DNA of 64,000 nucleotides from an uncultured Pseudomonadota bacterium (GCA_963829835.1 CAWHKC010000002.1:6279-70278); one strand, 5' to 3'. Positions 12,132 to 26,354 are shown, counted from the first letter of the stretch. The notes: generated from the sequence alone by a model not told the origin. Program-made: numbers and translations.

Positions 12132-13082
12132 ATGACTAAGAAAGGTGTAAGTACACTTTCTGAAGCAACTACTTGGCTTCAAGCTTTGATTAATCCAGAC
12201 TCGCTTGATCGTCGGCGTACTCTTCAACTCGAAGAAAGAGCCGCTCAACAAGCTTATGTAAGAAATCTAGCAGTTCAAAAAGCAAAAAGTCCTGAGGCAC
12301 CAAAGGATGATAGCCTTTTCAAAATGAAACAGCTTGCTGGAACTTATAAATGCAAGATTGCTAATGATGAATTTCCAAAAGGCTCAGAGGTTCAATGGAT
12401 CCAAACCATCAAATCAATTGACTACAAAGATAATGATATCGACCATCAAAATGCCGATGCTATTTTGCGACAGATAGAGAAAGTTGATTCTGTTACGGCT
12501 AAGGGTTTAGCTGAAAAAGCAGTTCAATTGGAAACCAAAGATCAACAAGCTGGACCTAAACGAGATATTAATGGCAAATTTATTGAACAAATTTTGCACG
12601 ATCTTGAAAATTCTTCCTCACAATCTTTGATTGTGAATTTAAGTAATCCTAAAAATGAAACAGCACCATTAGCATTTGCAATTCTTAAGGGTGAAAATGG
12701 TCTTTGGTTGCATGATTCCAAACTGGGCTCTTCTATCTATTTTAAAAATACTGAAACTGAAAATTTTAAGAAATTTTTAGTTGATCATATACGACTTAAT
12801 CATCAAGGTTTTAACAAAGGTTCTATTGTGCATGTTGGTAATAAAGAAACATTGAAAAAAGAAAAGGACGCCAATCTATCCAATACACAAACACACAGAC
12901 ATGATACTGTCGCTTTGGGGCGAAAAGCAGCCGCCGACGCGACAGCGACAGCGACAGCGACACCGACAGCGACACCGACAGCGACAGCGGCACCGACACC
13001 GGCAGATCAAGCAAAACCAGATAGAAGAAAGCTCCCCCAGCCAACCGATCCTAAGAGTCGCCCCAAAAAGGGTAATTTTTAG
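12132..13082 (+). CDS. Hypothetical protein, candidate secreted effector with Ala/Thr/Pro repeat tail
   Basis: 316-aa ORF with GGGGAG RBS; central segment resembles the YopT/C58 C-terminal strands; low-complexity tail. Confidence 0.75.
   Translation: MTKKGVSTLSEATTWLQALINPDSLDRRRTLQLEERAAQQAYVRNLAVQKAKSPEAPKDDSLFKMKQLAGTYKCKIANDEFPKGSEVQWIQTIKSIDYKDNDIDHQNADAILRQIEKVDSVTAKGLAEKAVQLETKDQQAGPKRDINGKFIEQILHDLENSSSQSLIVNLSNPKNETAPLAFAILKGENGLWLHDSKLGSSIYFKNTETENFKKFLVDHIRLNHQGFNKGSIVHVGNKETLKKEKDANLSNTQTHRHDTVALGRKAAADATATATATPTATPTATAAPTPADQAKPDRRKLPQPTDPKSRPKKGNF
12939..13004 (+). repeat. In-frame 6-bp tandem repeat (11 units, g/c-cg-a/g-ca)
   Basis: gcgaca x4, ccgaca, gcgaca, ccgaca, gcgaca, gcggca, ccgaca, ccggca; encodes ATATATATPTATPTATAAPTPA. 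Confidence 0.9.
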
Positions 13083-15834: not shown

Positions 15835-16392
15835 GTGCCTAAGAAACAACCTTGGATACAGTCTCTGAAACCACCGGCACGTCCAAAGGTTACACCTGGC
15901 TATCAACATGATTTGAATTTCCCTAGTCTCCTCCAGACACATCACTTTACCTTTAACACCTTAGAAGAAGCCACCCAGCTGGCTGCATATATTACCAGCC
16001 TCTACCCAGAGAAATTCCATAAAAGAATAGAATTAGGGCTAAATGAGCTTTTTTTTAATGCCATTGAACATGGAAATTTAGGAATTGATTGCGAATTAAA
16101 AGCGATGTTAAAGAAAGCCAATCAATGGGAAAATGAAGTTCAAAAACGACTTAACACTTCTCCAAATCAAACCAAATATGTTGAAGCATCGATAGAGATT
16201 AACCCTACTTACATTTTATTAAAGGTAAAAGATCAAGGAAAGGGATTTGATTGGCGACTATTTCATGAAGGAAGTGAGAAGCCATCATACGAACCCCATG
16301 GACGAGGTTTAATGATGGCCAAAAAATACTGTTTTGATAAAGTTGAATTTTCAGAAAAAGGCAATGAAGTTCATTGTTTGGTGTATTTGTAA
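15835..16392 (+). CDS. Stand-alone histidine-kinase-like ATPase (RsbW/anti-sigma-like HATPase_c)
   Basis: ELFFNAIEHGN (N box), DQGKGF (G1) and GRGL (G2) motifs. Confidence 0.8.
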   Translation: MPKKQPWIQSLKPPARPKVTPGYQHDLNFPSLLQTHHFTFNTLEEATQLAAYITSLYPEKFHKRIELGLNELFFNAIEHGNLGIDCELKAMLKKANQWENEVQKRLNTSPNQTKYVEASIEINPTYILLKVKDQGKGFDWRLFHEGSEKPSYEPHGRGLMMAKKYCFDKVEFSEKGNEVHCLVYL

Positions 16393-16872
16393 TCAATCGT
16401 ACAATATATAAAAATTATCTATATTCTTCTCTAAACGATCTTTAAAAACCATCAACGTTTCTTTATCTTGCATAATTACCAAAACCGTATCATCACCCGC
16501 TATTGTCCCTAAAACACCATAATAAGGATCTGTTTTACCACTTTCATTTTGAATTTTCTGATCAATTTGATAGGCAAGGGCATTTGCATTGCCGGGTAGC
16601 GTTGTTAACAAGATAAGATTCGGCAAAGACATTTTAATACTAAACACAGGAATGCGAGACAAGGTTTCCTGACTTAACATCTGATAGCGATTATTCACTT
16701 TTACAATATTCAGCTTCTTAAGCCACCGCGACAAAGTGGATTGCGGAATATCGACCCCATTTTCTTTAAGTTTTTCTTGGAACTGGCTTTGTTCAGATAA
16801 CTCATTATTTATTACAATACGTATCAATAAGTTCTCAAGAGTTTCTGCATCTCGACTCATAGTTGGGCACAT
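16393..16872 (-). CDS. argR: Arginine repressor
   Basis: QSTLSR helix, TLPGNA and GTIAGDDT motifs; start may be 16860. Confidence 0.9.
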   Translation of the reverse strand: MCPTMSRDAETLENLLIRIVINNELSEQSQFQEKLKENGVDIPQSTLSRWLKKLNIVKVNNRYQMLSQETLSRIPVFSIKMSLPNLILLTTLPGNANALAYQIDQKIQNESGKTDPYYGVLGTIAGDDTVLVIMQDKETLMVFKDRLEKNIDNFYILYD

Positions 16873-16906
16873 GTCTTAGGTTGATTAACAATTATGATAA
16901 ATTACC

Positions 16907-18214
16907 TTAATCTGTTAATGCTGTCCATTGACGATATTCATTCATTTTTTCAATACTCAGTTCAATGCCCAGATTTCCTGTGGCACCTAGATGCGTTTTA
17001 CTTAAGATATTCTCGACCGGGGAACTCAATTGAACTTTATCAAGTTCATTCGCCACTTGTTTATAAGCATCTCTAAAGGGGATCCCTTCTTTGACAAGAG
17101 ACAATACTTTATCTGTAGCAAAAATTTCAGTTGTAAAAGAGTTTACACAATTCTGTTGATTAACTTGCAATTGCGAAAATACCCTTGTAAAAACTTGAAG
17201 TGACATATTCGTTATATCAAAGCCTTGCATTAAAGGACGCTTAGTTTCTTGAAAGTCTCTATTATATCCTGAAGGCAATGCTCGAATCAGTTCTAACACT
17301 TGAAATAACAACCCTTGCATCGTAGCAGATTTTGCTCTGATTAATTCCAATGGACAAGGATTACGCTTCTGTGGCATTAGACTACTGCCAGGGCAAAATT
17401 TTTCGGGCAATGTAAGATAACCAAACTCAGGTGCACCAAAAACGATAATATCTGTCGACATTTTGCTTAAATCATTCATTATCTGCACTAAAGCACTCAA
17501 GATAATAGATTCAAATTTTCCACGACTATTGTTTGCATACAACACATTATTTTGAACTGCTCTAAAACCCAATAGATCCGAAGTATATTGCCTATCGATA
17601 TCCAAAGACACCCCGTAACTTGCAGCCGATCCTAAAGGACATTGATCGACCAACCAATAAGCGTTTTTTAAAAGCGCTATATTATCCAACATAGATTCAC
17701 TGAAAGCGCCAGCCCACAATCCCATTGAAGAAGGCATTGCCCTTTGAAAATGGGTTCTACCTGGCATAGGGACATCGTGATAACGTTTAGCAAAATGGCA
17801 TAACACTTCGCAAAGAGTTAAGACTTCCTTGGTGATATTCATTAACCAGTCCTTTGAATATAATCTCATATCCAACAAGACTTGATCGTTCCTTGAACGT
17901 GCAGTATGTAACTTTTTCCCTAAATCACCACATTGTGCTATTAATGCATTTTCAACTGCAGTATGCACATCTTCATCTTGAAATTGAATAATAAATTTAT
18001 CTTCTTTTGCCAAACTGATGATATCGTTCAAAACCTGAACTAATTGCTGGCATTCAAGCGTAGTTAATATACCAATTTTATTTAACATCTTGGCATGCGC
18101 GATACTACCAATACAGTCGTATACGACAAGGGCTTGATCCAATTGTGGATCATCCCCTGTCATAAAAGTTTCAATTAAGTGATCAAGAGTGTATCCTTTG
18201 TCCCACAACTTCAT
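16907..18214 (-). CDS. argH: Argininosuccinate lyase
   Basis: LHTARSRNDQ, MPGRTHFQRA, GSSLMPQKRNP and GYNRD motifs; ATGA-coupled to the upstream gene. Confidence 0.93.
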   Translation of the reverse strand: MKLWDKGYTLDHLIETFMTGDDPQLDQALVVYDCIGSIAHAKMLNKIGILTTLECQQLVQVLNDIISLAKEDKFIIQFQDEDVHTAVENALIAQCGDLGKKLHTARSRNDQVLLDMRLYSKDWLMNITKEVLTLCEVLCHFAKRYHDVPMPGRTHFQRAMPSSMGLWAGAFSESMLDNIALLKNAYWLVDQCPLGSAASYGVSLDIDRQYTSDLLGFRAVQNNVLYANNSRGKFESIILSALVQIMNDLSKMSTDIIVFGAPEFGYLTLPEKFCPGSSLMPQKRNPCPLELIRAKSATMQGLLFQVLELIRALPSGYNRDFQETKRPLMQGFDITNMSLQVFTRVFSQLQVNQQNCVNSFTTEIFATDKVLSLVKEGIPFRDAYKQVANELDKVQLSSPVENILSKTHLGATGNLGIELSIEKMNEYRQWTALTD

Positions 18215-19461
18215 GTTGTACCTCCATTGATAATATCATGTTGTCTTTTTGCCAGAATTTCAAAAGGCAAGCCACGGATCTTAGCGGCATGAGAACACCA
18301 TCGTTGATCGAAAGAAGCACTTTTAATTGAACGTACTTCAGGCGCAAAAAGCGAAAAGTGAGATTCTCGATGAATAATTTCAATGTTACCTTTATATAAT
18401 TTGGCTTTAATTTTACCTGAAACAACTTGTTGCGTTTGAATAATAAAAGCATCAAGCGCTTCTTTCAAAGGGGCAAACCATTGGCCATGATAAACAAGAT
18501 AAGCCCATTTCGCATCAATACCCTTTTTAAATTGTATTTCATCTTTGGTTAAACATTGCTGTTCTAAATCACGATGTAACTTTAAGATCACATGCGCTGC
18601 GGGTGCTTCATAAATTTCACGGCTTTTAAGTTCCATGATGCCATCTTCGAACATGTCAATTAAACCAATTCCTTGCGAGCCCGCAATGAAATTTAGCTTA
18701 GCAATTAAATCATCTAAGGCAAATTTCTCTCCATTGAGTGAAATCGGCAAGCCTTTGATAAATTCGATTTCCACTTCAGTGCCTATTTCTGATGCCTTAG
18801 CAAATGGAAACTTCCACATCCACACATCATCTGGAATTGCTTGATTTAAATCAATGGCCCCAGATGCAATCGATCGACACCATAGAGTCTTATCATCACC
18901 ACCTACAATTTTTTCATCAACAGGAACCCCCCAGTGTTTACATAATAGAAGCTCATCAAATCGCGTCAAATCAAAATCTCTTACTGGAACAAGGACATCT
19001 AATTCAGGCGCAAAAAGCTTAAACACATTATGCATTCGGTATTGATCATTACCTTTGCCAGTTGATCCCTCCAAAATCGCATCACACCCTTGTTTTTTTG
19101 CTTCTTGTGCAACTATTTTTGCGACCAGCTGACGCGTCATAGAAGTTGACACGGGGTAACCATTGTAATCAGAATTGGCCATAATGGCTTTTGTTAACCA
19201 CTTTTTTGAAAATTCTTCTTTAGCATCAATCAAAAGCGGTTTTATCCCTAATGCTTTGGCTTTCTCTTGCACTTGTTGCAGTTCCTCGATCCCTTGTCCC
19301 ACATCAATGGTAATGGGAATGATATCTTTTGCCTCGTAAATATGGCGTAACAAGGCAATAGCGAGCGAAGAATCTAAACCGCCAGAAAAGGCAACTGCTA
19401 CTTTTTGCCCTTTTTTAACTGGCGTTTGTTGAATTTTTTCTAGTATCGTTGCAAGTGTCAT
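18211..19461 (-). CDS. argG: Argininosuccinate synthase-family protein, divergent second paralog
   Basis: AFSGGLDSS PP-loop, TGKGNDQ and KSREIYEAP motifs. Start ATG at 19461 has a GGAGG RBS and ATGA overlap. Confidence 0.85.
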   Translation of the reverse strand: MTLATILEKIQQTPVKKGQKVAVAFSGGLDSSLAIALLRHIYEAKDIIPITIDVGQGIEELQQVQEKAKALGIKPLLIDAKEEFSKKWLTKAIMANSDYNGYPVSTSMTRQLVAKIVAQEAKKQGCDAILEGSTGKGNDQYRMHNVFKLFAPELDVLVPVRDFDLTRFDELLLCKHWGVPVDEKIVGGDDKTLWCRSIASGAIDLNQAIPDDVWMWKFPFAKASEIGTEVEIEFIKGLPISLNGEKFALDDLIAKLNFIAGSQGIGLIDMFEDGIMELKSREIYEAPAAHVILKLHRDLEQQCLTKDEIQFKKGIDAKWAYLVYHGQWFAPLKEALDAFIIQTQQVVSGKIKAKLYKGNIEIIHRESHFSLFAPEVRSIKSASFDQRWCSHAAKIRGLPFEILAKRQHDIINGGTT

Positions 19462-20687
19462 AGTGCCTCCTGATTGATTGCTGACCATTGTTGTAATCGT
19501 AATGCGTTAATTTTAATAAACCCTTTGGCATCGAGCTGATCATAATTTCCAAGAACATCCATACTGGCAATATCAAGTTGATAGAGCGATTTTGGCGATT
19601 CACGTTTTATAACGATAACATTGCCTTTGTAGAGTTTTAGAAATACTTTTCCTTCAACATTTTCTTGGCTGTGTTCAATAGCGGTCATTAAAAATGCCAA
19701 CTCAGGACTGAACCAAAATCCGTTGTAAATAAGTTGTGCTATTTTTGGCATCCACATTTCTTTTAGATGAAACACTTCTCTATCTAAAACTAATGCCTCT
19801 AGCTCAAGATGCGCTTTCCATAAGACTGTACCTGCTGGTGTGTCATAAACACCTCTGCTTTTCATGCCAACAAAACGATTCTCAACAATGTCGATTTTGC
19901 CTATCCCATGCTTAACACATAGTTGATTAAGAGTGGAAAAAAGTTCAACAGAATTGTTTTTGACAGTCACGTTCTCTGTAAGATTAGTCCAGGAACAAGG
20001 AACGCCTTTTTTAAACTCAATAACAATATCTGTTTCTTCGCAACTGGCTTCTTTTAAAGTAACCATTTGCGCAGATAACTTCTCAGGAGCCTTGCTGCCA
20101 GGATTTTCCAAAACCCCACCTTCGAAACTGGTATGCATTAAATTCTCATCAATGCTATAAGGCTTTTCCAAAGTTGATGTAATCGGTATGCCATGGCTTT
20201 TGGCATATTGAATCATATCTGTTCGTCCTTTGAACTGCTGCAAAAACCCTTTGTCTTTCCATGGGCTGATAATGGTTACCTCTGGGAGCAGCGTCATATA
20301 GGCTATTTCAAATCGCACCTGATCATTTCCTTTGCCGGTGGCACCGTGAGCCAGAAAAGTTGTCTTTTCCTTTATTGCAATTTCAACTTGTTTCTTGGCG
20401 ATTAACGGTCTTGCCAAAGATGTCCCTAATAGATATCGACTTTCATACATGGCATTTGCTTTAAGCGCTTTGAAAATATATTGCTCCACAAATTCCTGTC
20501 GCAAATCTTCAATATATACCTTACTTGCTCCAAGGCTCATTGCTTTTTGCTTCAACGAAGCCATATCTTCTTTTTGCCCAACATCGGCCAAAAAACACAC
20601 GACCTCATAGCCTTGTTCAATAAGCCATTTTAAAATGATCGAGGTATCAAGCCCCCCGCTATATGCTAAAATTACTTTCTTCATCAT
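19458..20687 (-). CDS. argG: Argininosuccinate synthase, canonical type
   Basis: AYSGGLDTS, YLLGTSLARP, HGATGKGNDQVRF, YSIDENL.HTSFEGG and ENRFVGMKSRG motifs. Confidence 0.93.
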   Translation of the reverse strand: MMKKVILAYSGGLDTSIILKWLIEQGYEVVCFLADVGQKEDMASLKQKAMSLGASKVYIEDLRQEFVEQYIFKALKANAMYESRYLLGTSLARPLIAKKQVEIAIKEKTTFLAHGATGKGNDQVRFEIAYMTLLPEVTIISPWKDKGFLQQFKGRTDMIQYAKSHGIPITSTLEKPYSIDENLMHTSFEGGVLENPGSKAPEKLSAQMVTLKEASCEETDIVIEFKKGVPCSWTNLTENVTVKNNSVELFSTLNQLCVKHGIGKIDIVENRFVGMKSRGVYDTPAGTVLWKAHLELEALVLDREVFHLKEMWMPKIAQLIYNGFWFSPELAFLMTAIEHSQENVEGKVFLKLYKGNVIVIKRESPKSLYQLDIASMDVLGNYDQLDAKGFIKINALRLQQWSAINQEAL

Positions 20688-21427
20688 AATTCCCATTTTT
20701 GTTGTAGTGATTTTGTTGTGCCATTAGCCAAGAGATTATTAAGTGCAGCATTTACTTTTGTTAGAAAAATGGAGCCTTTTGTTAAAGCGATACCATAACC
20801 TTCTTCTGCTTTTCCTATTTCTTGATATGTTAAAATAGGATTCATTTTACAAAATTCGGCTGCTTGCACCGATTCAATAAGGATGAAATCAACTACTCCC
20901 AATTTTAATTTTTCAATTAAGGCTGGGTTTGAGTCCATTGACGATATTTCCACATCCTTAAATTCTTGATGAATTTTTTTGGCGGCTTGCTCCATGGTGG
21001 TTCCCAATTGAACCCCTATTTTTTTATGCGAAAAATCATTGAAATCTGGCTGTGCTTCTTTTCTATAAATCATGGCTAGCGTTGCCTGATAATATTGTTC
21101 TGTAAAATCAATATTTTTTTGCCTTTGGGGAGTGATTGTTAGTCCGCAGGCTGCGAGATCGATTTTTTGGGTTTGTAAAGCAGGAATAAGATTGTGGTGC
21201 GCCATCTCTAAGAAGGTGACACTCATATTCATTTCTTGGGCAATTTTCTCTATTAAATCAATATCAAATCCAACCAATTTACCCTGTTTTGAGTAAGCAA
21301 AAGGAGGATAGTCTGAACACACCCCTACCTGAAGGAGCTGATGGGTTTTATTTTTTGAATGTTCCTTATGGCACCCAGTCATATTGAACAAACATAATAA
21401 TATCAAAGAATATTTCCAAATCTTCAT
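20684..21427 (-). CDS. Polar amino acid ABC transporter substrate-binding lipoprotein (likely arginine/citrulline)
   Basis: Lipobox MTGC, DYPPF, GFDIDL and GVQLGTT motifs; located in the arg operon. Confidence 0.88.
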   Translation of the reverse strand: MKIWKYSLILLCLFNMTGCHKEHSKNKTHQLLQVGVCSDYPPFAYSKQGKLVGFDIDLIEKIAQEMNMSVTFLEMAHHNLIPALQTQKIDLAACGLTITPQRQKNIDFTEQYYQATLAMIYRKEAQPDFNDFSHKKIGVQLGTTMEQAAKKIHQEFKDVEISSMDSNPALIEKLKLGVVDFILIESVQAAEFCKMNPILTYQEIGKAEEGYGIALTKGSIFLTKVNAALNNLLANGTTKSLQQKWEL

Positions 21428-22077
21428 GCTACACCGCCACTTCTTTGCTTAAAAAAACTATCAATATTTTTATCATTGAATAGCACACCTTCCTCAAGAT
21501 ATAACATTCGTGTTGCCACTTGTTTTAAAAAGGCAAGTTCATGAGAAGCTATTAGCATGGTCAAACCTTGCATTTTCAATTCTTGGACTATTAAAACAAC
21601 CTCTTGCACTAAATTCGGATCCAGCGCAGAAGTCGGTTCATCAAGCAGCAAAATCTGTGGCTCCATCATTAAGGCTCTTATAATGGCCACTCTTTGTTTT
21701 TCGCCACCTGAAAGTTGAGAGGGAAAGTTATTCCTTTTATCCCAGAGGGAAAATCGTTTTAGCAAAGACTGTGCTTTTTCAGTTGCAAGCTTATTTGTTA
21801 GTTTCAATATTTTTATGGGTGCATATATAACATTATTTAATACACTCATATGGGGAAATAAATGAAGATGTTGAAAAATAAATCCTTTACTTGCTTCAAA
21901 CTCAATAGAGCCACTATCAATGGTTTCAAGACCTTGTAAACATTTTAAGAGGGTAGATTTTCCACTGCCAGAGTGCCCCACTAACCCCACGACTTCCCCT
22001 TTTACTATTTCAAGCTGAATATCTTTTAGTACCGGCTTTATGCCAAAGGATTTATGAAGATGTTGTGCTTTAATCAT
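21424..22077 (-). CDS. Polar amino acid ABC transporter ATP-binding protein
   Basis: GHSGSGKST, LSGGEKQR and LLDEPTSALDP motifs; probable start MIKAQ at 22077. Confidence 0.9.
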   Translation of the reverse strand: MIKAQHLHKSFGIKPVLKDIQLEIVKGEVVGLVGHSGSGKSTLLKCLQGLETIDSGSIEFEASKGFIFQHLHLFPHMSVLNNVIYAPIKILKLTNKLATEKAQSLLKRFSLWDKRNNFPSQLSGGEKQRVAIIRALMMEPQILLLDEPTSALDPNLVQEVVLIVQELKMQGLTMLIASHELAFLKQVATRMLYLEEGVLFNDKNIDSFFKQRSGGVA

Positions 22078-22708
22078 ATGCCCACACCTTTTCAATCTTT
22101 TTGCCCGTCTGTGCTAGCAAGAAAGTTAATACGTAATAACAAAGTGCTGCGGTGAAAAGTGGTAATAAATAAGTATATTGCTCGGCAGACACCAGTTGCG
22201 CCCTTCGCATGATATCTTGCTCTCCCAGCGTAGAAATCAGTGCCGTCTCTTTTAAAAGACTAATCGCTTCATTCATCAGTGCTGGAAATATTGTTTTAAA
22301 GGCTTGAGGCAGGATGATATCTTTGTACATATAAATGGATGGGATCTGTAAGGCTTTGGCTGCTGCAAATTGTCCTTTATCTACACTATTCAAGCCAGCT
22401 CTGATAATCTCGCATATGTAAGCACTGGAATTCAGGCCAAAGGCAATGCAGCCGGCGATAAAAATTGAAATGGAAACATCTAACAAACTTGGTATGACAA
22501 AATAAATGATGGCGAGCTGAACGAGCAGTGGCGTCCCTCTTAAAAATGAGACGAACAAACTTATAGCAAAAGTGCCTATTTTATTAAAACTCAATAAGGC
22601 GAGTGCTGAACCTATTATTAATCCCATTATAAGTGAGATAAAGGTATAGGCCAGGGTGATCGTTACCCCTTGAATAATAAAGAGAATGCTTTCGTTAAAC
22701 CCTATCAT
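22070..22708 (-). CDS. Polar amino acid ABC transporter permease
   Basis: RGTPLLVQ, NSSAYICEIIRAG and EAA-loop-like motifs; GAGG RBS before ATG at 22708. Confidence 0.9.
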   Translation of the reverse strand: MIGFNESILFIIQGVTITLAYTFISLIMGLIIGSALALLSFNKIGTFAISLFVSFLRGTPLLVQLAIIYFVIPSLLDVSISIFIAGCIAFGLNSSAYICEIIRAGLNSVDKGQFAAAKALQIPSIYMYKDIILPQAFKTIFPALMNEAISLLKETALISTLGEQDIMRRAQLVSAEQYTYLLPLFTAALCYYVLTFLLAQTGKKIEKVWAYD

Positions 22709-22729
22709 CACTACCTCACCCATGATTAA

Positions 22730-22747
22730 AATGGATGCATATCCATT
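22730..22747. promoter_or_regulatory. Putative ARG box (ArgR operator)
   Basis: aa-TGGAT-gcat-ATCCA-tt palindrome matches the TGNAT-N4-ATNCA shape directly upstream of the arg operon. Extra ATTCA/TGGAT half-sites at 22752-22766. Confidence 0.6.
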
Positions 22748-22875
22748 TAATATTCATATTATGGATATAATAGGCAGTAAAATGAAACATTGTCAAGGCA
22801 CATAACCGATTTATGGGTGTATTGTGATAAAGGGAGGTTTACTGCCGATTAACGTGGATGCGGGGGCATCTTATT

Positions 22876-22910
22876 CCCTCTCCCTTTTGGGAGAGGGTTA
22901 GGGTGAGGGG
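22876..22910. repeat. Short palindromic element (uninterrupted host element)
   Basis: ccctctcccttttgggagagggttagggtgagggg, immediately after the stop of the 22914-23195 gene. Confidence 0.75.
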
Positions 22911-22913
22911 TTT

Positions 22914-23195
22914 CTATTTTTTAAACACTGATCCTGCAATTGAACAAACACCTGAACAAATCGTACTAAAGTGCTTATAACCCAGGTATCCAATCATCAT
23001 TACTCCTTCCCATGCATCTTGAGCTAACGATCCATTAGGTGTCCAAACTGGCTGTGGAACAAGCTTTCCTGATGGGTCTGGTTTCCAGTCAATCATGAGC
23101 ATTCTGACTGATCCACTATCATTAATGTTATTCAGCATTTCTTCAGAAGTTGCGCCGCTCACATGGTTTAATTCATTTTTTGCCAACATTCTCAT
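22914..23195 (-). CDS. Small protein with a double-glycine-type (bacteriocin-like) leader
   Basis: N-terminus MRMLAKNELNHVSGA fits M-x-x-L-x-x-x-EL-x-x-V-S-G-[GA]; GAGG RBS. Confidence 0.65.
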   Translation of the reverse strand: MRMLAKNELNHVSGATSEEMLNNINDSGSVRMLMIDWKPDPSGKLVPQPVWTPNGSLAQDAWEGVMMIGYLGYKHFSTICSGVCSIAGSVFKK

Positions 23196-23445: not shown

Positions 23446-24480
23446 TCACTTAATTTCCCAAGTCTTGCCTGTACGCAACAATGCATCCACCGAAGCGTGT
23501 GGAAATTGTTCTTTTGCATTAGCCACTTGTTCGGCTATTTCCTGCTCATAGATAGGTCTTTGAATGGCTCTAAAGATGCCCACTGGCACAGGAAATTCAG
23601 GATGAGGCATTTCATTTAATTTAATAGCCATGGCAATGGAATCATTATTTTGATGGACGTAAACTTGGCTTGCTGCAGTCTCATCTTTCATGTCGATAAT
23701 CTCAAAGTTATCGCCATCAAAACTTAAACCTTTTTCACCGTTTTGACCAAATACCACAGGGCTACCGGGTTCTAAGGTAACAGTGTTATCGGCGCGTACG
23801 CCTCTATCACTGATTTGTGCAAAAGCGCCATCATTAAAGACATTGCAGTTTTGGTAAATTTCGACAAAAGAAGTGCCTTTATGCTGAGCTGCTTCTTTGA
23901 GGATCCATTGTAAGCCTTTGCTATCAACATCAATACTGCGCGCTACAAAACTACAACCTGCTGCCAAAGCCAAATGAACCGGATCAAAGGGATGATCTAT
24001 CGATCCCATTGGCGTGGTTTTGGTCTTCTTCCCTTTTTCTGAGGTCGGAGAATATTGACCTTTAGTTAAACCGTAAATACGATTATTAAAGAGTAAAATA
24101 GTAACATCAACGTTTCTACGCATGATATGCAAAAGATGGTTGGTGCCAATGCTCAAGCCATCACCATCACCTGTTACCACCCAAACCGATAGTTCAGGAC
24201 GGGCAATTTTTAATCCCGTTGCAATGGTTGGTGCACGACCATGAATCGTATGAAATCCAAAAGTGTTTAAATAATAAGGAAAGCGACTTGAACAGCCAAT
24301 ACCAGAAACAAAAACTGTATTTTCTCTTTTAATACCAAGTTCTGGTAATATTTTTTGCACACTGGCTAATATCGCATAATCACCACATCCAGGACACCAG
24401 CGTACTTCTTGATCACTAACAAAAGACTCTCTTGTTAGAGGTTCATCGTCACCTTCTTTTATATCAACCGCTATCGACAT
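23446..24480 (-). CDS. korB: 2-oxoacid:ferredoxin oxidoreductase beta subunit
   Basis: WCPGCGD, SGIGCSSR, HGRA, GDGD TPP motif and YGLTKGQYSPT. Confidence 0.9.
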   Translation of the reverse strand: MSIAVDIKEGDDEPLTRESFVSDQEVRWCPGCGDYAILASVQKILPELGIKRENTVFVSGIGCSSRFPYYLNTFGFHTIHGRAPTIATGLKIARPELSVWVVTGDGDGLSIGTNHLLHIMRRNVDVTILLFNNRIYGLTKGQYSPTSEKGKKTKTTPMGSIDHPFDPVHLALAAGCSFVARSIDVDSKGLQWILKEAAQHKGTSFVEIYQNCNVFNDGAFAQISDRGVRADNTVTLEPGSPVVFGQNGEKGLSFDGDNFEIIDMKDETAASQVYVHQNNDSIAMAIKLNEMPHPEFPVPVGIFRAIQRPIYEQEIAEQVANAKEQFPHASVDALLRTGKTWEIK

Positions 24481-24485
24481 TTCGC

Positions 24486-26354
24486 TTAACTCTCCAAATA
24501 CGGCAATAGGTGTTCTTTTAATTCGGCCACACCAAACGGTTTCCCTTCAATCTTGTTGATCCCTTTAGCGTCAACCAAGAAACGCGCTCTTAACAAATGG
24601 CATAATTGGCCAGCATTCAATTCAACCACTAAAACATGTTGAAATGACTTTAAAATCTCACCAAGATTCTCTTGAAAAGGATTCAAATAACGCAGATGGA
24701 CCGCACTAATGGCATGATCTTTTGCTTGTAATTCTTCAACTGCCGAGCGGATTGAGCCATAGGTGCCACCCCATCCAACAACCAATACTTTTCCTTTGCT
24801 TGCGCCCATTATTGTTAATGGTGGTAAATCTTTGGCAATGCCTTGGATTTTAGCTGCGCGCAGGTTTATCATCTTTTGGTGATTTTCAGGATCATAGCTG
24901 ATGTTACCGGTCTCATGCTGTTTTTCCAGGCCGCCAATGCGATGCTCAAGACCTTTCGTGCCAGGGATTGCCCATGGTCTTGCAAGCGTCTTGGGATCTC
25001 TGCTATAAGGCAAAAATCCTTCCTTCTCGTTATGATATTGAATAGAAATTTTGGCTAATTCTTCCATTTTAGGAATTTTCCAAGGCTCAGCACTATTAGC
25101 CAAGTAAGCATCACTTAATAATATAACCGGCGTCATATATTGAGTCGCAATGCGGAATGCTTCCAAGATCATGTAAAAGCAATCTCCGGGCGTACTGGGA
25201 GCCAATACGGGCAGCGGACATTCACCATGCCGACCAAACATTGCTGTTAACAAGTCAGATTGTTCAACTTTTGTTGGCATACCTGTGGATGGCCCAGCGC
25301 GCTGAACATCAACCACCACTAAGGGTAATTCTGTCATCACCGCAAGTCCCAAGGCTTCACTTTTTAAATCCATCCCCGGCCCACTGGTTGTTGTTAAGGC
25401 AAGGGTCCCACCATAGGCTGCGCCAATCGCAGCACCAATGGCCGCAATTTCATCTTCAGCTTGAAATGTCTTAATGCCAAATTGAGCGTATCGTGCTAAC
25501 AAATGGAGAATATCTGAAGCCGGTGTGATGGGATAACCGCAAACCAATAGTGGTAAATTTGCTTTATCCGCAGCAGCGATGCAACCCCAGGCTAAAGCTT
25601 GGTTCCCCGTAATTTGCCTATACTCACCCTCAGGTAAGATAGCAGCTTTAACAGTGTAATGTTCAGCAAACAACTCGGCTGTAATGGCATAATGGTAACC
25701 TGAGCGCAATGCCACGATGTTCGCCTGCGCTATCTCTGCTTCATTTTTAAAACGTTCATTGATCCATTCTTTCGTGTCTTCAAGATCACGATGATATAAC
25801 CAATAGACCGCCCCAAGAGCAAACATATTTTTGCACTTTCTCGCACTCGTTCTGGAGATTTTTATTTCTTCAAGGGCCTTTAAGGTTAGGGACGTCATTG
25901 GTAAACGAACAACTCTGAATTCGCTTAGACTAGAAGATTCAAGCGGATTCTCGGTAAAGTGCGCTTTTTTGAGATCTTTATCTGTGAATTTATCTTCATC
26001 AATAATTAATATCCCACCAGGCTTTAAAGTCTTCAGGGTCACTTTAAGCGCAGCGGGGTTCATGGCAATTAACACATCATATCTGTCCCCTGGGGTGTGA
26101 ATATGACGCTCTGAAAAACTTAACTGAAAACCAGAGACACCAGGAAGCGTGCCCTGGGGGGCTCTAATCTCAGCAGGGTAATCTGGATAAGTGCGCACAT
26201 CATTACCTAATGTGGCACAAGACTGCGTAAACTGCATTCCTGCAAGTTGCATCCCATCACCTGAGTCACCGGCAAAGTGAATCACCACAGTTTCAAGGGG
26301 TATTCGTTTAACAGTGAGGGGGATTTTAGTCGTGAATGTATCAATATCTGCCAT
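24486..26354 (-). CDS. korA: 2-oxoacid:acceptor oxidoreductase alpha subunit (gamma-alpha fused)
   Basis: AGDSGDGMQLAG, PAEIRAPQG, GYPITPAS, QAEDEIAA, TTSGPG and DVQRAGPSTGMPT motifs. Confidence 0.9.
   Translation of the reverse strand: MADIDTFTTKIPLTVKRIPLETVVIHFAGDSGDGMQLAGMQFTQSCATLGNDVRTYPDYPAEIRAPQGTLPGVSGFQLSFSERHIHTPGDRYDVLIAMNPAALKVTLKTLKPGGILIIDEDKFTDKDLKKAHFTENPLESSSLSEFRVVRLPMTSLTLKALEEIKISRTSARKCKNMFALGAVYWLYHRDLEDTKEWINERFKNEAEIAQANIVALRSGYHYAITAELFAEHYTVKAAILPEGEYRQITGNQALAWGCIAAADKANLPLLVCGYPITPASDILHLLARYAQFGIKTFQAEDEIAAIGAAIGAAYGGTLALTTTSGPGMDLKSEALGLAVMTELPLVVVDVQRAGPSTGMPTKVEQSDLLTAMFGRHGECPLPVLAPSTPGDCFYMILEAFRIATQYMTPVILLSDAYLANSAEPWKIPKMEELAKISIQYHNEKEGFLPYSRDPKTLARPWAIPGTKGLEHRIGGLEKQHETGNISYDPENHQKMINLRAAKIQGIAKDLPPLTIMGASKGKVLVVGWGGTYGSIRSAVEELQAKDHAISAVHLRYLNPFQENLGEILKSFQHVLVVELNAGQLCHLLRARFLVDAKGINKIEGKPFGVAELKEHLLPYLES

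Follow-up and report, generated by a model that had tools for sequence, protein, structure and literature searches.

The route from ornithine to arginine through ornithine carbamoyltransferase (OTC) is regarded as near-universal, and where argF is missing, the genome is routinely recorded as arginine-auxotrophic or as containing a gap in the pathway. Known reasons for an apparent absence of OTC are the N-acetylornithine and N-succinylornithine carbamoyltransferase variants, which use a PF00185 enzyme and carbamoyl phosphate. The last steps are carried out by argininosuccinate synthase (ArgG, human ASS1, EC 6.3.4.5) and argininosuccinate lyase (ArgH), a pair which, similar to PurC and PurB, installs a nitrogen by aspartate ligation followed by fumarate elimination. 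Non-canonical relatives of ArgG include the nitrile synthetase of PDB entries 9LEH and 9LEI, which has the ArgG fold and a substrate other than citrulline, and the likewise non-canonical, curated NCBIfam family NF038212, "argininosuccinate synthase-related protein". Here we describe an arginine operon in a stretch of 64,000 nucleotides (the window; GCA_963829835.1, CAWHKC010000002.1:6279-70278), in which a canonical ArgG (ArgG1) is followed by a divergent paralogue (ArgG2) and ArgH. We propose that ArgG2 probably marks an undescribed route from ornithine to arginine.

ArgG1 and ArgG2 share 32% identity across 400 residues, and both contain the Pfam domains PF00764 and PF20979, which score 151 and 201 bits in ArgG2. 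By these two domains and its PP-loop SGGLDSS, ArgG2 belongs to the argininosuccinate synthase family. It exceeds the ArgG equivalog cut-offs of PRK00509 (349.8 against 334, barely) and TIGR00032 (344.6 against 268.2), falls below that of PRK13820 (380.6 against 512), and is not a member of NF038212 (argG_rel; 198.7 bits, cut-off 425). Similar to canonical ArgG, it has the SGGLDS PP-loop, the GKGNDQ loop and an operon link to ArgH. Unlike canonical ArgG, to any member of which it is about 32-40% identical, it occurs as an extra copy and is enriched in genomes without OTC. The motifs of ArgG1 are YSIDENLMHTSFEGG, ENR and YDTP, and those of ArgG2 are SGGLDSS, STGKGNDQ, GGDDKTLWCRSIASG and FEDG; profile scores and motif reading thus agree with the earlier note on this DNA, which had called the first gene canonical and quoted these motifs for the second. 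The nitrile synthetase matches ArgG2 at 112 bits, but is a much more remote relative, takes part in natural-product biosynthesis and does not lie among arginine genes. An AlphaFold2 model of ArgG2, built from a 9-sequence alignment, had a mean predicted local distance difference test score of 61.7, too poor for a fold search, and was left unused.

For the comparison of active sites, 71 ArgG2-type and 17 canonical sequences, including human ASS1, were aligned with MAFFT, and residues were numbered as in ASS1, the sequence of which reproduced all the numbered landmark residues. Ser180, Glu191 and Arg272 are replaced in ArgG2 by Gly, Ala and Gly, respectively, just as the earlier note had aligned them by eye. 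Further substitutions are H116E, V126Y, F128M, E129H, Y/W179G and N184T, and every one of these changes is at least 99% fixed among the 71 sequences of the subfamily. That the altered positions are invariant across phyla supports the earlier suggestion that ArgG2 is more than a spare copy of the canonical enzyme. The PP-loop is retained together with the equivalents of Y87, S92, R95, T119, K121, N123, D124, R127, R157, D182, E270 and Y282. A deep mutational scan of ASS1 revealed S180, E191 and R272 as substitution-intolerant active-site positions, with S180N, E191Q and R272C inactive (PMC13289927). In the same study S180 is assigned chiefly to ATP contacts, E191 is named as a citrulline contact, and R272 is a residue of the active-site pocket that works with a loop of the neighbouring subunit (PMC13289927). 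At the positions required in characterised argininosuccinate synthases (S180, E191, R272, H116 and N184), ArgG2 has G, A, G, E and T, respectively. ArgG1 has the equivalents of S180, E191 and R272. The changes in ArgG2 are not merely those of the "other" canonical clade, since the mycobacterial ArgG of solved structure (4u7j) retains S180, N184, E191 and R272.

About 440 GTDB species encode a protein of the ArgG2 type, with 64-79% identity to ArgG2. The bacterial carriers include members of the PVC (Planctomycetes-Verrucomicrobia-Chlamydiae) bacteria, including Chlamydiae, Planctomycetota, Brocadiia and Phycisphaerae, as well as Thermodesulfobacteriota/Syntrophaceae, Dependentiae, Bacillota from anaerobic digesters, Spirochaetes, Anaerolineales and Latescibacterota; the archaeal ones include DPANN and Woese-, Alti- and Euryarchaeota. 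Throughout the subfamily the motifs GGDDKT(L/M)WCRSIASG, GGDDKT(L/M)WCRSIASGAIDLNQ and FEDGIM-LKSREIYEAPAA are invariant. In a library clustered at 50% identity it is represented by two sequences (561 and 529 bits), and the next match scores 313 bits. In the tree the wider clade, looser GGDD-type relatives included, stands on a long stem with a support of 0.99. Judged from these comparisons, ArgG2 is a separate, constrained family. The looser relatives P0128, P0127 and P0134 (35-44% identity) show the signature EGS-G-GNDQF, GGDD-T-WC(R/H)S-GSG and EDG/EDL, with E116, G179-G180, T184 and A/G191 in common with ArgG2; the group with the altered pocket is therefore larger than the tight ArgG2 clade. 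Two delta-proteobacterial metagenome-assembled genomes (MAGs), G063 (loci L059 and L072) and G051 (L035 and L048), have two ArgG2 copies each, on separate contigs.

The best protein match of ArgG2 is a protein of Candidatus Protochlamydia phocaeensis (79% identity), and the source genome (assembly of 3.98 Mb, 99.5% complete) was placed in Parachlamydiales because the best matches of ArgG2 fall there. The chlamydial ArgG2 clusters with those of Dependentiae and two other small-genome symbionts (support 0.985). Since the ArgG2 proteins of unrelated symbionts form one clade with the chlamydial ones, this suggests that the cluster of binding protein, ArgG1, ArgG2 and ArgH moved by transfer among protist symbionts.

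A canonical ArgG was also found in 29 of 30 carrier genomes (205-247 bits for the N-domain), the remaining one being a partial 1.3-Mb single-cell assembly. The case that the earlier note had envisaged as speaking against a special role, the subfamily being the sole ArgG in many genomes, thus did not arise. The proposal that ArgG2 is native to the lineage and ArgG1 recently acquired was likewise rejected, as ArgG2 was not the sole ArgG in any carrier beyond that one assembly. All 22 OTC-less genomes among the 30 keep the canonical ArgG, which lies inside argB-argD-argG in the complete OTC-less genome G023 and inside argC-argB-argD-argG in the OTC-less G018; an OTC-less MAG labelled Woesearchaeota has the single cluster ArgG2-argJ-argB-argD-argC-ArgG1. 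In most genomes ArgG1 and ArgG2 are unlinked. ArgH is present in 31 of 31 genomes including the source genome, as a single copy in 29 and with a weaker second match in G011 and G019, and in most loci it adjoins ArgG2, not ArgG1. Neighbourhood clustering of 80 loci revealed no conserved partner of ArgG2 beyond ArgH and, in symbionts, ArgG1 and the binding protein of an ATP-binding cassette (ABC) transporter.

The ArgH of the window is the only argininosuccinate lyase of the source genome. It belongs to the argininosuccinate lyase family, and its RSRNDQ, TH and GSSLMPQKRNP motifs align with those of duck delta-2 crystallin. This short ArgH lacks about 30 residues of the C-terminal domain, leaving the ASL_C2 region shortened or divergent, and has a fixed GRTH beside the catalytic Thr-His, where the long ArgHs adjoining ArgG2 elsewhere have GYTH. 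In a sample of 201 Planctomycetota genomes, 13 with and 188 without ArgG2, the short ArgH (51-58% identity to that of the window) is confined to the first group: 12 of those 13 genomes have it, whereas the best match among the 188 reaches 47%.

The distribution of OTC was analysed in 79 ArgG2 genomes, most of which are MAGs without reported completeness. A true OTC is present in 26 and absent from 53. In the 20 genomes checked, the weak OTC matches are PyrB, with a single such match per genome; PyrB was found in 15 of the 20, including the source genome. Where checked, most ArgG2 genomes have no PF00185-family protein besides PyrB, unlike genomes relying on the acetylated or succinylated carbamoyltransferase variants. 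CarB is present in 21 of 30 genomes. ArgJ was found in 26 of 31, indicating that ornithine is made, and the five genomes without it are chlamydiae and symbionts of 1.0-1.6 Mb. The source genome has no OTC and no ArgJ. On its contig 4 (G000) lie PyrB (659742-660644) and a full-length CarB (1819767-1822916), from which it is predicted to make carbamoyl phosphate.

Among the Planctomycetota, 9 of the 13 ArgG2-containing genomes have no carbamoyltransferase other than PyrB, compared to at most 19 of the 188 others (odds ratio 20, p = 2.8e-6). This association was retested by PF00185 copy number, and is strong only when all non-PyrB carbamoyltransferases are counted. OTC accompanies the short ArgH in 4 of 33 genomes and the long canonical ArgH, mostly of Thermodesulfobacteriota, in 15 of 22 (p = 3e-5). 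Six reduced symbionts (G012-14, G031, G033 and G034) carry ArgG2 with no CarB and no PF00185-family protein, and are therefore unable to make carbamoyl phosphate or carbamoyl-aspartate; five of the six have ArgG1, ArgG2 and ArgH in a single cluster, and the absence of ArgJ was confirmed in G012-14. By gene content, the OTC-less carriers would make or import ornithine and keep a citrulline-using ArgG1 and one ArgH, without a known source of citrulline. ArgG2 is the sole gene that tracks this citrulline gap. As the canonical ArgG is retained, in some cases within arg operons, citrulline is still needed in the OTC-less cells. ArgG2 probably operates within arginine synthesis, upstream of citrulline, because the single ArgH adjoins it, arg clusters contain it and the loss of OTC goes with it.

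Therefore, it is a serious possibility, although we would not call it probable, that ArgG2 supplies citrulline in place of OTC. That it does so specifically by aspartate/carbamate chemistry is a more tentative claim, for which we infer what ArgG2 binds and makes and that ArgH acts twice; the gene structure, the subfamily, its pattern of co-occurrence and the lack of OTC are observations. The complete scheme, which we advance with considerable doubt, is that ArgG2 and ArgH would convert ornithine, CO2, aspartate and ATP to N5-(succinylcarbamoyl)ornithine and then to citrulline and fumarate, with neither carbamoyl phosphate nor OTC. The two genes would form a module, with ArgG2 as its signature enzyme, that leads from ornithine to arginine without OTC. 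In the first step, CO2 would join the delta-amino group of ornithine to give a carbamate. ArgG2 would then adenylate the carbamate oxygen at the expense of ATP, a reaction that ArgG carries out on the ureido oxygen of citrulline, and couple the product to the amino group of aspartate, resulting in N5-(N-succinylcarbamoyl)ornithine. Removal of fumarate by ArgH would yield citrulline, which the canonical ArgG1 and the same ArgH would turn into arginine. A variant with ammonia in place of aspartate as the nucleophile would give citrulline directly, and is less likely. Under the aspartate/carbamate route, both terminal guanidino nitrogens of arginine would come from aspartate. In the chlamydia-like genome, which lacks ArgJ and OTC, host ornithine would enter through the adjoining ABC importer, and ample arginine would cause ArgR to repress the operon. 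Anaerobes, DPANN archaea and intracellular symbionts may have acquired the route from one another by gene transfer.

Synthesis of the ureido group by ArgG2 without carbamoyl phosphate is the reading that agrees with every pattern observed. It would explain why ArgG1 is always kept and why ArgG2 travels with ArgH, and would account for the retention of the aspartate and ATP residues while others changed, as well as for the three genes kept by symbionts that have no carbamoyl phosphate. As for precedents, dethiobiotin synthetase (BioD) makes a ureido group from an amine carbamate by activating it with ATP, although its fold is unrelated to that of ArgG and it phosphorylates rather than adenylates. 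By analogy, the proposed ArgG2/ArgH step would combine this idea with that of the PurC/PurB and ArgG/ArgH pairs. We know of no enzyme that performs carbamate activation and aspartate ligation on ornithine. Within the ArgG fold, the nitrile synthetase (PDB 9LEH) adenylates a carboxylate, according to a reference cited in PMC13060819. Literature searches found no description of the ArgG2 paralogue or of an OTC-independent route, and GapMind discusses only the succinyl-ornithine variant.

Several observations weigh against OTC replacement by this route. One third of the ArgG2 genomes keep OTC, including most Thermodesulfobacteriota, and at least one archaeal MAG has the two genes side by side. 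Mere substitution for OTC therefore does not describe ArgG2, which may provide a parallel or conditional route rather than a strict replacement. With the strict OTC model alone, the association with ArgG2 in Planctomycetota is weak and not significant (p = 0.085); this model scores in only 55% of the 201 genomes, because many Planctomycetota use OTC-like carbamoyltransferases. In seven genomes without OTC the ArgH is of the ordinary long type, so that a specialised lyase is not required, and the catalytic motifs of the short ArgH are unchanged. In addition, some absences of OTC may be assembly gaps, most of the genomes being MAGs. The proposed intermediate N5-(N-succinylcarbamoyl)ornithine has, to our knowledge, never been reported.

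The main rival to the carbamate route places the same partners in reversed order. ArgG2 would adenylate the ureido oxygen of N-carbamoyl-L-aspartate, the product of PyrB, and the delta-amine of ornithine would attack to give argininosuccinate directly through the same tetrahedral intermediate as in canonical ArgG, with PyrB replacing OTC. This is chemically the most economical solution, as it asks for the fewest changes in the ArgG active site and for no new lyase specificity, and it fits both the unchanged motifs of ArgH and the OTC-less genomes with an ordinary ArgH. The occurrence of PyrB in 15 of 20 genomes, the source genome among them, and of CarB in 21 of 30 is consistent with it, and ArgG2 with ArgH would be a self-sufficient mobile module, matching their co-inheritance. 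However, ArgG1 would have no substrate in OTC-less cells, though 22 of 22 keep it, some in arg operons, and the six reduced symbionts carry ArgG2 with neither PyrB nor CarB. We regard the reversed order as rather unlikely.

It is also unlikely that ArgG2 is a true argininosuccinate synthase, acting on citrulline and aspartate with other kinetics, regulation or nucleotide handling, while something unrelated fills the OTC gap. The scores above the NCBIfam ArgG equivalog cut-offs and the shared operon with ArgH argue for such an isozyme, as do nine of ten residues that we take to be the annotated ligands of ArgG. On the other hand S180, E191 and R272, essential in ASS1, are replaced throughout the subfamily, stable coexistence with canonical ArgG in 29 of 30 genomes, down to 1-Mb symbionts, speaks against redundancy, and the link to OTC loss would be left without a reason. 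A non-catalytic or modulatory ArgG2, in mixed tetramers with ArgG1 or in a complex with ArgH, would agree with the co-occurrence of the two paralogues and with the architecture of argininosuccinate synthase, whose active sites are formed by two subunits and whose R272 belongs to the portion completed by a loop of the neighbour, a loop in which R386 and K389 of ArgG2 are invariant. But the fully conserved PP-loop and ATP residues and the 64-79% identity across phyla are typical of an active enzyme, the two genes are unlinked in most genomes, and a heteromeric or regulatory role would not explain the missing OTC; we consider it improbable. Least probable of all is that ArgG2 joins aspartate to homocitrulline, carbamoylputrescine or the like and ArgH releases a non-arginine guanidine, for although the pocket is altered and the ArgG fold has been adapted to new substrates elsewhere (PDB 9LEH), the conserved neighbours are arginine genes only, ArgH is single in 29 of 31 genomes, no gene to make or use another ureido or guanidino compound recurs among the 80 loci, and OTC loss stays unaccounted for. 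The release of such a guanidine had been suggested in the earlier note, and finds no support in the single ArgH beside ArgG2, the arg clusters and the tracking of OTC loss; the interpretation given there is thus supported in part.

The operon consists of seven co-directional genes on the minus strand, and positions in Table 1 are those of the whole window. In line with the translational coupling given in the earlier note, an ATGA stop/start overlap was found at the junction of ArgG1 and ArgG2 and again between ArgG2 and ArgH (18211-18214), with GGAGG ahead of each. The true start of ArgG2 is almost certainly the ATG listed, as AGGAGG precedes it, it overlaps the TGA of ArgG1 in ATGA, and homologues have 416 residues.

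Table 1. Genes and candidate control sites of the arginine operon, in the direction of transcription.
Feature	Position	Strand	Remarks
Promoter-like TTGACA-18-TATTAT	22767..22796	-	Best match within 16200-23000, 11/12 positions; consensus match only
Candidate ArgR operator, two overlapping perfect 8-bp inverted repeats	22729..22768		AAATGGAT/ATCCATTT and ATATCCAT/ATGGATAT
Polar amino-acid ABC transporter permease	22070..22723	-	TIGR01726 above cut-off; three-transmembrane HEQRo permease family
ABC transporter ATP-binding protein, GlnQ/ArtP-like	21424..22095	-	GlnQ 214 bits, ArtP 203 bits; both below equivalog cut-offs
Periplasmic substrate-binding protein, lysine/arginine/ornithine type	20684..21427	-	TIGR01096 154 bits, below cut-off
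ArgG1, canonical argininosuccinate synthase, 412 amino acids	19458..20696	-	PRK00509 531 bits (cut-off 334), TIGR00032 459 bits
ArgG2, divergent ArgG paralogue, 416 amino acids	18211..19461	-	ATG at 19461; longest open reading frame 18211-19488
ArgH, short type	16907..18214	-	TIGR00838 340.8 bits (cut-off 279.5), profile positions 22-388 only
ArgR arginine repressor, last gene of the operon	16393..16872	-	Both Pfam ArgR domains; TIGR01529 86 bits, below cut-off

Both palindromes are built on ATGGAT/ATCCAT and fall in the interval that separates the -10 element from the start codon of the permease, which they approach to within 6 bases. They may be the operator for ArgR, the divergent chlamydial repressor whose gene closes the operon. 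They differ from the ARG box of the E. coli type, the consensus of which has 17 matches in the window against 15 expected, hence no enrichment, and none upstream of the operon. A homologue of the binding protein adjoins ArgG1-ArgG2-ArgH in other symbiont genomes also; this four-gene block is common to loci L036, L037 and L038 and the chlamydial loci L003-L007, and its unrelated carriers besides chlamydiae are Dependentiae, a 1.0-Mb MAG labelled Pseudomonadota and a 1.6-Mb MAG.

Directly upstream of the operon (23446-26354, minus strand) lie two subunits of a 2-oxoacid:ferredoxin oxidoreductase, an anaerobic-type enzyme inside a chlamydia-like genome; the 622-residue subunit has POR and POR_N domains, and the 344-residue one is predicted to bind thiamine pyrophosphate. 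Convergent with argR is a gene (15835-16392, plus strand) for 185 amino acids with an HATPase_c_2 histidine-kinase-like ATPase domain, the fold of RsbW-type anti-sigma factor kinases. Another open reading frame (12132-13082, plus strand) encodes 316 amino acids with no Pfam match and has a low-complexity tail, ATATATPTATPTATAAPTPA, followed by a basic C-terminus; a frame-shifted open reading frame overlaps it.

The automatic annotation of ArgG2 as "argininosuccinate synthase" masks the problem, and the hypothesis of an OTC bypass lends itself to a direct test in common E. coli auxotrophs and by uncomplicated enzyme assays. If it is true, the metabolic reconstructions of hundreds of uncultured lineages would have to be revised, among them Planctomycetota, Phycisphaerae, Brocadiia, anaerobic-digester Bacillota, Spirochaetes, DPANN archaea, environmental chlamydiae and Dependentiae. 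The ArgG/N-type ATP pyrophosphatase family would also gain a reaction type, and one of the most conserved biosynthetic pathways a previously unknown variant. Symbionts would be able to draw on ornithine from the host while making no carbamoyl phosphate, which would account for tiny genomes devoting three genes instead of two to the end of the arginine pathway.

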